This document shows, piece after piece, positions 310 through 2,429 of a DNA stretch of 9,690 nt (position 1 is the stretch's first letter; each line of letters opens with the position of its first letter). Position numbers and translations under genes: made by a program. The notes under the pieces were generated by a model, which was given only the letters and a program-made list of their open reading frames with translations, had not been told where the DNA came from and did no database searches. Source of the stretch: a virus (Duplodnaviria; Heunggongvirae; Uroviricota; Caudoviricetes); IMG/VR virus record IMGVR_UViG_2551306491_000022; one strand, given 5' to 3'.

Positions 310-540
310 ACAAGCTCAGATTTTTTGTAAAGAATCTGTCACGCTAAAAGATGTCGAACAAAAATTAACCACAATCATCATCTTTTTTGCATCAACCACA
401 TTAAAAACAACAGGTTACACACATGATGATGATGACGATAAAATCACAAAAATGCGCTTTTTTCCGCGCCGCCCGCCCCGTGTTCAGGCCCACCCCACCA
501 GGAGGACCCGCAAAAAAGGCGGCTGGTGCCGCCTTGTTGT
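310..540. repeat. Intergenic cassette A, paralogous to 2850-3080
   Basis: Collinear similarity with cassette B at an offset of about 2540 bp. Shared blocks: TTTTTTGTAA (321-330 vs 2861-2870), GAACAAAAA..AACC (356-370 vs 2896-2910), triplet repeats (ATG)4 vs GTGGTGGTGATGGTG, a GC-rich core AAAAATGCGC..TTTTTCCGCGCC..CCGCCCCGTG..CAGGCC..CCCCACCAGGAG..CAAAAAAG (448-517 vs 2986-3056), then a 6-bp hairpin. Confidence 0.6.
512..533 (-). terminator. Intrinsic terminator after the protease/capsid gene
   Basis: Plus strand reads AAAAAA(512-517) GGCGGC(518-523) TGGT GCCGCC(528-533). On the minus strand this is a 6-bp GC stem with a 4-nt loop followed by UUUUUU, 7 nt downstream of the capsid stop (542..540). 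Confidence 0.6.
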
Positions 541-2429
541 CATAGTGAATCTGTCCCGCCTGATTTGACCATACCGCGATAATCCAGAGCTGCCACACCT
601 GCATCAATACGGACTTTCCAGGCCACGCCGTCAACGATAAAACCTTCCTGCTGTTCAAGGTAAGGCTCGTCATTGCCATCAAGATAAGCCACCTCGATTG
701 TGTCTGTTCCCTGTGCGGAAAGCATGTACCATTGTTTTTCGCTGATATCATCAAGGCGGGGATCGACGATGATATCAAGTAGCTTGTGATACGGGTTAAA
801 GATCCCGCTGTTTTTATCAGCCCCGAAAGGTGCGGTTGAGTTAATCATCTGCAACGCGCGATCTTCCAGTGCTGCCGGAACTAAAAGGAATTTAGGCGCA
901 ATATTCAGCACTTCGCCATTTTTGTCCTTCTGTGTGCGCATCAGGTGACGTGCTGCACTAAGTCCCGGTGTTGTCAGTCCTGCTTCAATCAGGTTGCTGT
1001 GTTTTTTGTCAAACAGCGCTATTCCGTCAGAAAGTTTTACGTTGCCTGTAAGCACCAGATTAACCAGATTTCCCACCGTTCTTGATGCTGCACGGCCCAT
1101 AGCCATTGGCACCGTTGATAACTGATCAAGGTCATCATTGATTATCGCCTGGCGGGTAATGCTGAAAATATTCCCGTAAGTAGCCAGCGCGATGGGTTCA
1201 CCGCGATCGCTGGTGGTAATGTATTTATATTCTGCCCCTTCCGGCACTTTGTTTAACGTTGAGAAGCCATTCATACCAACGCGGCGGGCTTCCCGGAAGT
1301 TTGAAAGGGAACCTTTTTTCGTCCACTGGCGGAATGTTTCGCCGCTGTGCTCCCAGCCTGCAAGCACTGATTTTTCAGCGCCACCAGCAAGGATATCGGT
1401 AAAATCGCTGCTGCTGTGGGTGAATGCCGCGTTTACTATCTGCGAGCGTGTGCTGTAGCTGCCCGTGCTTATACCACGATGGGTTAATGATGCCTGTGCC
1501 ATATCGAAAAGGCTCATCATGGCGTAAGGATTACCGCGTTCGGCCCGTTCGTGACCAAGACGCGCATTAAGCCCCTGACGCATGGCATCGCCGGTTATAT
1601 TGCCGTTATCCGTGTACGCGTAGTAAAGATTTGCGGGGGTGGTTTTGTTTGTTGGCGTTGATTCTTTACCCATAGCGAGTAAAAGGCGTTCGCGTGCATT
1701 CTCAACGCTACATTCTGAATCCGCAAGACAACTTATAGCCAGGTCGTTATATCTTCCGTTGAAGGTGCCAAACAATTCACGGATTCCGTTAAGTCGTTCC
1801 TGTTCGCCACTGCCAGTTTTCTGGCTGATCATGCTTTTAATTTTTTCCGGCATATTTGAAAAATCTCCGATTCGTTTTGATTCAATTCGGGCCATTGCTG
1901 TAATCGCGGGTATAACCTCATCTGCGAAGCCGTTAGCCTTACACTCATTGCCATCCATCCAGGTTTCCGCCTCCATCATTGAGGTGATCTCCTGTTTGCT
2001 CCTGCCCGTTCTTCCGGCGTAGGTTTCCGCCATCGTGTCGCCCAGCTTGTCCATCAGGTCAGCAAAGCGGCGAACGTCGCCCGACACTCCGGCAGTAACA
2101 CCACGGGGGGCATGTATCATCATCATCGCGTTTTCAGGCATAACGATGTGATCGCCACACATGGCAATAAACGAGGCCATAGAAGCCGCCATGCCTTCAA
2201 TGTGTACAATTTTCTTTGCCGGATGATTTTTCAGGGCGTTATAGATAGCCAGCCCTTCAAAGATGTCGCCACCAGGTGAATGGATGCGAAGATGGATTTC
2301 AGACGCATTACCGCACGCGTTGATCTCGTCAGTAAGTGTCGATGCTTTTACACCGTACCCGCCGATCTCGTCATAAATACGCACATAGACAACATCTGCC
2401 ATAGCCTTAATGGAAAACCATGTTTTCAT
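540..2429 (-). CDS. Fusion protein: ClpP-like serine prohead protease (N-terminal ~200 aa) + HK97-type major capsid protein (C-terminal ~400 aa)
   Basis: 629-aa ORF with ATG start and AGGAG Shine-Dalgarno 7 nt upstream. N-terminal motifs line up with ClpP: IHSPGGDIFEGLAIYNAL (ClpP INSPGG..AGLAIYDTM), GMAASMASF (ClpP GQAASMGAF, nucleophile Ser), MIHAP (ClpP MIHQP, catalytic His). The C-terminal part is of the length and composition of a phage major capsid protein. Start codon overlaps the stop of the upstream gene (ATGA). Confidence 0.8.
   Translation of the reverse strand: MKTWFSIKAMADVVYVRIYDEIGGYGVKASTLTDEINACGNASEIHLRIHSPGGDIFEGLAIYNALKNHPAKKIVHIEGMAASMASFIAMCGDHIVMPENAMMMIHAPRGVTAGVSGDVRRFADLMDKLGDTMAETYAGRTGRSKQEITSMMEAETWMDGNECKANGFADEVIPAITAMARIESKRIGDFSNMPEKIKSMISQKTGSGEQERLNGIRELFGTFNGRYNDLAISCLADSECSVENARERLLLAMGKESTPTNKTTPANLYYAYTDNGNITGDAMRQGLNARLGHERAERGNPYAMMSLFDMAQASLTHRGISTGSYSTRSQIVNAAFTHSSSDFTDILAGGAEKSVLAGWEHSGETFRQWTKKGSLSNFREARRVGMNGFSTLNKVPEGAEYKYITTSDRGEPIALATYGNIFSITRQAIINDDLDQLSTVPMAMGRAASRTVGNLVNLVLTGNVKLSDGIALFDKKHSNLIEAGLTTPGLSAARHLMRTQKDKNGEVLNIAPKFLLVPAALEDRALQMINSTAPFGADKNSGIFNPYHKLLDIIVDPRLDDISEKQWYMLSAQGTDTIEVAYLDGNDEPYLEQQEGFIVDGVAWKVRIDAGVAALDYRGMVKSGGTDSL

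Follow-up and report, generated by a model that had tools for sequence, protein, structure and literature searches.

The Salmonella phage Gifsy-2 reportedly builds a T=7 capsid with cleavage of a precursor. Its 'tripartite capsid gene' (Effantin et al. 2010, Virology 402:355) is the prototype of its family. Published work describes its protease-capsid fusion. The family is curated in NCBIfam as NF045540 ('ClpP-like prohead protease/major capsid protein fusion protein'), its phage copies sit in lambdoid phages with genomes of 40–47 kb, and the gene order in these phages is portal, fusion and Phage_cement_2 (decoration).

EcCICFT073-type Gram-negative phage-inducible chromosomal islands (PICIs; Fillol-Salom 2018, 2019) are ~10-kb satellites that carry an integrase, an AlpA-like regulator and a replication module of their own, together with a capsid gene and two helper-like cos sites, and that have no tail or lysis genes. 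In EcCICFT073 the two cos sites are likewise reported to lie around the capsid gene, the putative capsid protein (c1499) and the head decoration protein (c1500) are separate ORFs with no protease-coat fusion, and the helper TerS is retargeted via Rpp. Deletion of this capsid gene, which is of the lambda-E type, left interference in place, and the island DNA was found in phage-sized heads (PMC6092414). [quoted passage not shown] Of 29 reference Gram-negative PICIs, 21 are reported to have capsid genes, and 'capsid morphogenesis' is a listed core PICI component (PMC10085698). SaPIbov5 makes demonstrated small capsids, and its Ccm protein is described as a homolog of the helper major capsid protein without mention of a fused protease; the capsid homolog of PmCI172 is a further precedent for small capsids. 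Capsid-forming PICIs (cf-PICIs; EcCIEDL933; Alqurainy et al.) encode their own coat protein and head protease, and also a portal, head-tail connectors, HNH, TerS and TerL.

The window analysed here, a 9,690-nt stretch catalogued as a Caudoviricetes virus (IMG/VR record IMGVR_UViG_2551306491_000022), carries a protease-coat fusion gene that sits in a ~10.3-kb E. coli PICI and not in a phage, a setting missed by the original prediction. The island shares with the EcCICFT073-type PICIs the components listed above for them, with a regulator that is AlpA-like by a weak match here, but its capsid gene is a protease-coat fusion, replication relies on a RepA/AAA_25 helicase and not on a D5-type primase (relatives carry either), and cos 1 matches the whole cos region of the helper. 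We found no match to an Rpp or TerS-like gene in the window, whereas a DUF1441 protein with 48% identity to the helper TerS occurs in some relatives. Like SaPIbov5, it would depend on a cos phage for its mobilisation, and it carries a diverged homolog of the helper HK97-type coat protein (here 52% identical to that of candidate helpers). Coat protein and head protease are both satellite-encoded, as in the cf-PICIs, and in the cf-PICIs of Firmicutes the two are likewise merged, but none of the additional cf-PICI genes is present here. The P4-like set (Sid, Psu, Delta, epsilon and alpha primase) was neither annotated nor detected in the window, so that among P4-like components (component list in PMC10085698) the integrase type alone is common to the island. 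We consider it roughly 85% probable that a Gifsy-2-type tripartite fusion serves here as the capsid morphogenesis gene of an EcCICFT073-type PICI at tRNA-Pro, which parasitises lambdoid phages of the same head type.

Table 1. Positions of the fusion gene, its parts and the surrounding island features in the window.
Feature	Position	Strand	Remarks
Fusion ORF, 629 aa	540..2429	minus	ATG start, stop TGA 542-540; identical to RefSeq WP_000860412.1
Protease domain, residues 1-175	1905..2429	minus	Codons: Ser83 2183-2181, His106 2114-2112, Asp170 1922-1920
Middle segment, residues 176-329	1443..1904	minus	Short linker, then helices; presumed scaffold/delta-like part
Major capsid domain, residues 330-629	543..1442	minus	Phage_capsid_4 / Mu gpT-like
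Candidate internal translation start	1851..1868	minus	Shine-Dalgarno-like GGAGA 1868-1864, ATG of Met193 1853-1851
93-aa ORF, last island gene	1..282	minus	PHROG 1561
Terminator hairpin (533-518, T-run 517-512), then cos site 1	300..533	minus	Candidate cosN GGGCGGCGCGGA at 474-463
Small ORF, 75 aa (RefSeq version 64 aa)	2426..2653	minus	Stop overlaps fusion start (ATGA); PHROG 4934
Terminator hairpin after ssb (3072-3057, T-run 3056-3051), then cos site 2	2976..3072	minus	Alignment, repeat families
Single-strand DNA-binding protein (ssb)	3089..3511	minus	PF00436, E 4e-16
RepA-family (AAA_25) replicative helicase	3962..5371	minus	Family match and RefSeq annotation
AlpA-like helix-turn-helix regulator	7746..7952	minus	Phage_AlpA E 0.003, below cut-off; RefSeq: HTH regulator
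P4-type tyrosine integrase	8449..9690	minus	Ends island beside tRNA-Pro

The protease-coat fusion protein

The fusion is one uninterrupted minus-strand ORF in the program-made ORF list; the original prediction, which proposed a single polypeptide joining protease and major capsid protein, had given no strand. The motifs it quoted, GMAASMASF and MIHAP, occupy residues 79–87 (with Ser83) and 104–108 (with His106). Pfam CLP_protease matched residues 41–173 (E 3.8e-33) and Phage_capsid_4 matched residues 330–623 (E 7.8e-55, profile positions 7–262 of 262), and PHROG 133 was matched by the fusion end to end (E 1.8e-280). In phmmer alignments against solved ClpP chains, Ser83 was aligned with the ClpP nucleophile (GMAASMGAF), His106 with MIHQP and Asp170 (GFADEV) with GLIDEV. 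These three residues form a complete triad that does not vary in any of 48 diverse homologs, and an N-terminal ClpP (S14) fold was recovered both by alignment to the solved chains and in a structure model. Both the single-polypeptide fusion and its ClpP-like N-terminus with nucleophile Ser and His are thereby borne out.

The structure model was built from the 48-sequence alignment, since the nine close sequences gave an unusable mean pLDDT of 40.6. The segment between the protease and coat domains is present and helical in this model (helices at residues 207–221, 228–236, 242–255, 276–290 and 301–316); the family norm for this segment is ~150–200 residues. The capsid part of the model, which shows a long spine helix at residues 434–462, has only moderate confidence, and its pLDDT falls below 50 at residues 371–422 and 574–615. 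This domain also gave weak sequence matches to the solved Mu-GpT-type capsid proteins 9jod and 8rkx and one BFVD major capsid match (E 5.6e-12). The fusion thus comprises a ClpP-like head protease, a helical middle part and a coat domain of the HK97 lineage (Mu gpT-like). Because a complete ClpP-type triad and a major capsid domain lie in one polypeptide, self-removal of the N-terminal part is the expected maturation mechanism.

NF045540 was matched over the full length of the fusion with 890 bits, where the curated cut-off lies at 475, and identity to Gifsy-2 STM1034.3n is 49.8% across 99% of the length. The domain order (ClpP-like protease, middle segment, coat protein) and the invariant Ser-His-Asp triad are those of the family, and the ORF truly belongs to the Gifsy-2-type 'tripartite capsid gene' family. 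With a curated family, a studied prototype and the exact protein given the family name in RefSeq, the fused protease-coat design is already known. It had been regarded as unusual by comparison with separate genes, a view that does not survive its presence in ~2,000 of 5,426 complete E. coli genomes and in many phages of 40–47 kb. Nor does the fusion point to a small capsid, as had been suggested, since Gifsy-2 (45.8 kb), mEp460 (44.5 kb), Stx2_95 (46.3 kb) and LESphi3 (42.8 kb) use it as their sole coat gene.

The satellite copies differ from the phage copies in the linker that follows the protease. It has 17 residues here and 17–23 in satellite copies, compared to 38–66 (median 50) in phage copies, so that satellite members are ~30–40 linker residues shorter. 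Capsid domains of satellite copies are 56–60% identical to those of enteric phage copies, whereas the capsid domain of a Pseudomonas phage copy is 65–67% identical to those same enteric copies. These identities suggest that the satellite copies form a separate, old lineage. Within it, two satellite lineages have fusions 62–64% identical to each other, both of them intact.

Some database entries of 1159 aa merge portal, protease and capsid, so that merged calls are not foreign to this gene neighbourhood; we otherwise found no support for the idea that a sequencing or assembly frameshift joined a protease gene to a capsid gene. Of the 144 complete E. coli genomes with a match, 143 have the same unbroken ORF over at least 80% of the query, and 80 phage records gave full-length matches. 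All 48 aligned homologs, from many genera, have the fused architecture, nearly all of the best 150 cluster representatives (50% identity) are 620–790 aa long, and the curated family model matches end to end. A merge artefact, for which the original prediction had asked that the region be checked, is therefore so improbable as to be negligible. Within the satellite lineages dN/dS is 0.07–0.13 in each of the three domains, and phage copies are similar, which argues that the gene is functional and under strong purifying selection in all three domains.

The host island and its cos sites

The island is annotated between tRNA-Pro and yejO with an att core of 14–16 bp. The repeat of the tRNA-Pro 3' end TGGTCGGCACGAGAG that lies ~10.3 kb away in L001 reads TGGTCGCACGAGAG. 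The genes around the fusion run ssb, cos, small ORF, fusion, cos and 93-aa ORF, and thus the fusion does not lie between portal and decoration genes as it does in phages; both are lacking from this 10-kb satellite. Neither the ORFs and their family scans nor tblastn searches that used helper proteins revealed a portal, TerL, tail or lysis gene in the window. Three iterons (TTTTnnnGCCCACTTTTT, 83–85 bp apart, 3777–3963) lie immediately 3' of the RepA helicase and are probably the origin by their placement; PICI origins sit 3' of the rep gene (PMC6092414). Equivalents of the AlpA-like gene in relatives carry PF05930.

The small ORF is kept upstream of the fusion in all satellite relatives, and the 93-aa ORF follows cos 1 at the place of the DUF1441 TerS-like gene in relatives. 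Searches with these two proteins (tblastn against 50,697 phage records) returned nothing. The 93-aa protein, which is also without a solved relative, was considered as a candidate Rpp and rejected. An Rfam scan of the window gave nothing credible (two matches at E 0.1–0.2, far below gathering scores).

Phage-like genes without a complete head, tail or lysis set could also be left by a decaying prophage in which the fusion merely survived a deletion, and Icd-like pseudogenes are annotated in the closest genome. This origin is very unlikely, as the integrase is intact and accompanied by att repeats, the replication module with its iterons is the element's own, and the fusion gene is under purifying selection. 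Moreover, the same compact architecture recurs with diverged sequences at three integration sites, those of the 62–64% identical fusions among them, and the layout fits published Gram-negative PICIs.

The fusion gene is bracketed by two cos sites here and in all relatives. Over 117 nt, cos 1 has 96.6% identity to Stx2_95 and to phages related to it, in which the phage-type fusion is found, and its region aligns collinearly with the full cos region that lies upstream of terS in the Stx2 phages. The assignment rests on this 117-nt match and not on a 12-mer search: the lambda-type cos 12-mer with two mismatches gave 11 matches compared to 8.5 expected, no excess over chance. The cos 12-mer of LLS/mEp213 is GGGCGGCGCGCT (PMC12315714). 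Cos 2 shares just the cosQ/cosN-like ~75 nt with cos 1 and then diverges. A reading of the two ~75-nt repeats as late promoters or an RNA element was dropped, as the repeats match phage cos regions. The fusion itself is only 52% identical to that of the presumed helpers, i.e. the phages sharing the 96.6% identical cos, which indicates that the capture is old and that the gene has been retained.

A candidate internal start at Met193

In lambda C/Nu3 and Mu I/Z, the protease and scaffold genes are nested, and an in-frame internal start after the protease part gives a shorter product beside the full-length one. The fusion has a comparable predicted arrangement: Met193 is invariant, and a Shine-Dalgarno-like GGAG precedes it in every one of the nine DNA sequences compared. 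This pattern suggests a nested, protease-free scaffold-capsid product of 437 aa. Lambda and Mu encode the coat protein in a gene of its own, whereas the nested product of the fusion would combine scaffold and coat. A fixed 1:1 stoichiometry of protease and coat, which the original prediction had attributed to the fusion, is doubtful because of this conserved GGAG and Met193. If real, the start would extend to Gifsy-2 and to the ~2,000 prophage copies in E. coli, and it would account for how such phages do without a protease on each coat subunit.

Role of the fusion gene in the satellite

As a capsid morphogenesis gene of the island, the fusion would act in a sequence of steps that we draw up from the family. 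Upon induction of the helper, the island would excise and be replicated by its own RepA helicase, SSB and iterons. The fusion precursor would then be made, possibly together with the shorter scaffold-capsid product started at Met193, and the subunits would assemble on the helper portal so that the protease and scaffold portions come to lie within the shell. The tethered protease would next remove itself and the scaffold part to leave a coat protein of ~300–350 residues. Finally, the helper terminase would cut the island at cos and fill the heads, and helper connectors and tails would finish the particles. Several observations weigh against this account: the dispensability of the EcCICFT073 capsid gene for interference and the phage-sized heads of that island, the preprint on PICI capsid genes, the only moderate confidence of the modelled capsid part, the lack in the island of the decoration (cement) protein that follows the fusion in phages, and the lack in the window of the TerS-like DUF1441 gene that some relatives have. 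The interest of the gene lies in its setting, where a complete protease-scaffold-coat unit is under purifying selection, has long diverged from the helper gene and is flanked by helper-type cos sites.

The satellite coat could instead co-assemble or compete with the 52% identical helper coat, as SaPIbov5 Ccm would suggest, and thereby redirect head size or interfere with the helper, since small heads would fit ~10 kb and exclude a 45-kb helper genome. The island size, the separate lineage of the satellite copies by capsid-domain identity, their shortened linker and the small capsids of the Ccm and PmCI172 precedents are in line with such a role. On the other hand, the heads that package EcCICFT073 are phage-sized, interference by EcCICFT073 does not need its capsid gene, and linker shortening may stem from other causes; we regard size redirection as possible, though on the improbable side.

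A more far-reaching and rather unlikely proposal is that this 'capsid in one polypeptide' (coat, scaffold and protease) uses helper portals to build shells specific to the satellite, which may be smaller than T=7. The short linker would then be an adaptation to a tighter interior, and the Met193 start would determine how many subunits bear the protease relative to those that lack it. If this were true, such islands would stand midway between the classical PICIs as thieves of whole heads and the capsid-forming PICIs, in which all head genes are encoded. What the coat gene does, whether it makes small heads, poisons helper assembly or has no measurable effect, bears on the gradation from head thieves to head builders.

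The gene may also be dispensable cargo, a captured helper late gene that has no part in island transfer and serves as a spare part or as a substrate for recombination with helpers. The cos repeats flanking the module suggest capture through recombination at cos, and variants lie inside helper prophages beside the phage's own fusion gene. We nevertheless think this doubtful, as purifying selection acts on all three domains, the low identity of the fusion compared to that of cos speaks for an old capture after which the gene was kept, and both diverged satellite lineages keep it intact.

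Protease and coat protein in one reading frame

The start of the fusion gene overlaps the stop of the small upstream ORF (ATGA), with GGAG 8 bases 5' of the start. In the product, GMAASMASF spans residues 79-87 and MIHAP residues 104-108, and alignment to solved ClpP chains placed Ser83 at the ClpP nucleophile, His106 at the catalytic His and Asp170 (GFADEV) at the catalytic Asp. A Pfam scan matched CLP_protease to residues 41-173 (E 3.8e-33) and the whole Phage_capsid_4 profile to residues 330-623 (E 7.8e-55), with Mu-like_gpT as a secondary match. Among NCBIfam models, NF045542 ('head maturation protease, ClpP-related') matched residues 16-172, and NF045540 ('ClpP-like prohead protease/major capsid protein fusion protein') scored 890 bits, where the curated cut-off is 475 bits. 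PHROG 133 matched end to end (E 1.8e-280). These matches agree with the original prediction of a protease and a coat protein sharing a single ORF with the quoted motifs, and the domain assignment predicted from family matches is beyond chance.

AlphaFold modelling reached a pLDDT of 40.6 with nine close sequences and a mean of 69 with a 48-sequence alignment (Escherichia, Salmonella, Edwardsiella, Serratia, Yersinia, Pantoea, Pseudomonas). In the latter model, residues 10-175 scored 80-93, and the helical middle part (helices 207-221, 228-236, 242-255) about 75. In the C-terminal part, a 29-residue helix (434-462) and a beta hairpin (399-418) were modelled along with other alpha/beta elements; confidence was low at 371-422 and 574-615. 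The capsid identity of this part is supported by the Pfam match, by weak sequence matches to solved Mu-GpT-type coat proteins (9jod, E 0.001; 8rkx, E 0.019) and by one 'major capsid protein' match in BFVD (E 5.6e-12). The HK97 fold is established for coat proteins of the Mu gpT-like type.

The possibility that a frameshift had merged two genes was checked against related sequences. Of 144 matching complete E. coli genomes, 143 carried the gene uninterrupted at 80% or more query coverage, and its RefSeq name is fusion protein; the window's product is identical to WP_000860412.1. Full-length tblastn matches were found in 80 phage records, and one frame was kept across the 48-sequence alignment, with Ser83, His106 and Asp170 invariant. 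Searching 1.84 billion cluster representatives gave 5,682 proteins at E <= 1e-30, and nearly all of the best 150 were 620-790 residues long. Taken separately, the protease, middle and capsid parts each had a dN/dS (Nei-Gojobori) of 0.07-0.13 within satellite lineages, the same range as between phage copies. On this evidence a frameshift artefact or a dead gene can be discounted, and the fusion is a genuine single gene. Several predicted proteins of ~1159 aa (P0278-P0301) join portal, ClpP-like protease and coat domains; these may result from gene calls merged where the portal and fusion genes overlap, or from genuine frameshifting.

The nearest phage relatives (50-52% identity over 99% of the length) include the Stx-converting lambdoid phages Stx2_95, VT1-Sakai and CP-1639, together with mEp460, mEp213, mEp043, cdtI and Klebsiella and Pseudomonas phages. 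The copy in Gifsy-2, the Salmonella phage that is the family prototype, is 49.8% identical, and a 2010 study of Gifsy-2 reportedly found a T=7 capsid and a cleaved precursor. In each annotated phage example the gene order was portal, fusion gene, Phage_cement_2 decoration gene, and no second coat gene was found in these examples. About 2,016 of 5,426 complete E. coli genomes contain the phage-type fusion, with as many as six copies in one genome. PMC12315714 treats the Gifsy-2 fused capsid gene and cites the 2010 study, and the Gifsy-2 capsid bears a trimeric decoration protein resembling lambda's (PMC8538268). The fusion is thus real and had been correctly read; its presentation as a departure from the usual separate genes gives way to a family already named (NF045540), with a studied prototype. 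The further suggestion of a small capsid was not borne out. Because the phages with the fusion have genomes of 42.8-46.3 kb, the fused design serves ordinary full-sized heads, and the fusion as such carries no information on capsid size.

A satellite island around the gene

The fusion gene belongs to a satellite of the phage-inducible chromosomal island (PICI) type, not to a phage, a point the original prediction had overlooked. E. coli ST130 carries a 100% identical copy in an island between tRNA-Pro (adjoining yejM) and yejO, in the order integrase, HTH regulator, Icd-like and YlcI/YnfO-type small genes, DUF4222 protein, RepA-family helicase, small ORF, SSB, small ORF, fusion gene and 93-aa ORF. 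The tRNA 3' end TGGTCGGCACGAGAG recurs as TGGTCGCACGAGAG about 10.3 kb away, with paired CGTATAACyAAACGTATAACTAAA repeats close to either end of the island (chromosomal locus L001). A tblastn search of the window for TerS, TerL, gpW, portal, cement and connectors of helper type found none. Five GTCAC iterons lie directly outside the window's start in L001.

This layout is the published one of Gram-negative PICIs, which have integrase, alpA, pri/rep with the origin downstream and cos sites, and often capsid and terS-like genes (PMC6092414; PMC6739421). The iterons 3' of the helicase gene occupy the same place as reported PICI replication origins. According to a preprint, 21 of 29 reference Gram-negative PICIs have a major capsid gene; it also speaks of PICIs 'bearing a CLP_protease gene'. 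In Firmicutes cf-PICIs, capsid and protease are merged (PMC10085698).

Of 5,426 complete E. coli genomes, 144 carried the clade of this satellite and 195 a second clade (coverage at least 80% for the latter). Islands whose fusion genes are 62-64% identical share the compact architecture at other chromosomal sites, with either a D5-type primase or an AAA_25 helicase; often a gene for a DUF1441 protein separates the fusion from the 93/94-aa ORF. The small terminase subunit of the helper phages belongs to this family (island version 48% identical to the helper's); the gene is absent from the window. The 75-aa and 93-aa ORFs are conserved, one on each side of the fusion gene, and had no Pfam, NCBIfam, PDB or phage-genome match.

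Window 6300-7800 is a diverged tandem duplication (period about 700-750 bp) with conserved hairpin-containing blocks at 6335-6388/7082-7135 and 6679-6753/7357-7431. Each unit holds a plus-strand YlcI/YnfO-family small ORF, and the 496-aa ORF at 6301-7791 (-) is almost certainly no gene. This region had no Rfam match and possibly confers RNA-based immunity of the P1 c4/icd or P4 kind.

Features of the island and its relatives (window coordinates unless a chromosomal locus, L, is named)
Feature	Position	Strand	Remarks
93-aa small ORF	1-282	-	PHROG 1561
cos 1, direct repeat	300-533	-	after fusion gene; terminator hairpin and ~75-nt block
Fusion ORF	540..2429	-	ATG start, 629 codons, TGA stop at 542-540
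Linker region	1770-1853		fusion residues 193-220; satellite copies lack 30-40 Pro/Ala-rich residues present after the protease domain in every phage copy
Candidate internal start	1851-1868	-	ATG at 1853-1851; GGAG-like block upstream
75-aa small ORF	2426-2653	-	PHROG 4934; translationally coupled to fusion gene
cos 2, direct repeat	2976-3072	-	after ssb; terminator hairpin and ~75-nt block
Three iterons TTTTnnnGCCCACTTTTT	3777-3963		83-85 bp apart; immediately 3' of RepA helicase gene
Inverted repeat	3887-3950		immediately 3' of RepA helicase gene
Icd-like ORF	6113-6313	-
att core TGGTCG(G)CACGAGAG, paired repeats and GTCAC iterons	L001 11073-11172, 11400-11455, 21223-21392 region		att core derives from tRNA-Pro 3' end
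161-aa DUF1441 protein	L003 12171-12656; also L004-L006, L008		between cos 1 and 93/94-aa ORF

cos sites and the probable helper

The two cos repeats flank the small ORF plus fusion gene in every relative examined, and their terminator hairpin stems differ by compensatory changes. Over 117 nt, cos 1 (~300-516) had 96.6% identity to the non-coding sequence directly 5' of terS in those Stx2 phages that have the phage-type fusion, and was collinear with it almost to the terS start codon. cos 1 contains GGGCGGCGCGGA at window 474-463; LLS/mEp213 has the inferred cohesive-end sequence GGGCGGCGCGCT, and lambda has GGGCGGCGACCT (PMC12315714). cos 2 shares only the upstream cosQ/cosN-like part with cos 1. 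A third, inverted copy was present in three related loci (L007, L009, L010).

The PICI EcCICFT073 likewise has two functional cos sites (PMC6739421), but retargets TerS by Rpp, whereas the window has no Rpp or TerS-like gene. Because of this lack, and because cos 1 looks like the helper's complete cos, we infer that the island uses the helper terminase directly. A lambdoid phage that shares this head type is the probable helper. The cos is nearly identical while the coat gene is only 52% identical, and the coat gene is therefore no recent capture.

In an island variant (L014 9777-17580, L015, L016; NZ_CP027766.1 around 3.28 Mb) with a fusion gene 91-99% identical, the island abuts a lambdoid prophage with truncated terL (residues 330-707), gpW, portal and phage-type fusion, so that 3.7 kb separates the satellite coat gene from that of the helper, and both point the same way. 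It resembles the 'helper-embedded satellites' of a 2022 preprint.

Satellite copies of the fusion and a candidate nested start

The linker from invariant Pro194 to Arg212 was 17-23 residues long in satellite copies of the 48-sequence alignment, compared with 38-66 Pro/Ala-rich residues in its 40 phage-length copies (median 50 over the 41 non-selected rows). In P0345 (630 aa), another sequence of the alignment, it was 22 residues, identical to the linker of the satellite clade-2 copy P0088. The satellite capsid domain was 56-60% identical to enteric phage copies, to which a Pseudomonas phage copy was closer (65-67%); the satellite lineages are therefore old or fast-evolving outgroups. Satellites, unlike the phages, have no decoration gene. 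The short linker, the divergence and the missing decoration gene would be compatible with a specialised role, for example in size redirection. In EcCICFT073, whose own capsid gene is lambda-E-type, unlike the fusion, capsid-gene deletion left interference intact and DNA was packaged in phage-sized heads (PMC6092414).

Met193 was invariant in all 48 sequences despite variable surroundings. A GGAG-type purine block lay 9-11 nt 5' of its ATG in nine of nine DNA sequences, satellite and phage copies alike, although the residues encoded there differ (Gly-Asp, Glu-Glu, Gln-Glu). A start codon was present in all nine at nine columns, of which Met193 alone had a conserved match to the anti-Shine-Dalgarno sequence (none weaker than -6.0 kcal/mol, versus -3.3 at the next-best column). 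Among all 613 columns, one other cluster equalled this match, and conserved Glu-Gly codons explain it. Initiation at Met193 would yield a 437-residue scaffold-coat protein, a prediction from sequence that resembles the nested gene arrangements of lambda C/Nu3 and Mu I/Z. The ratio of protease to coat subunits would then not be one to one.
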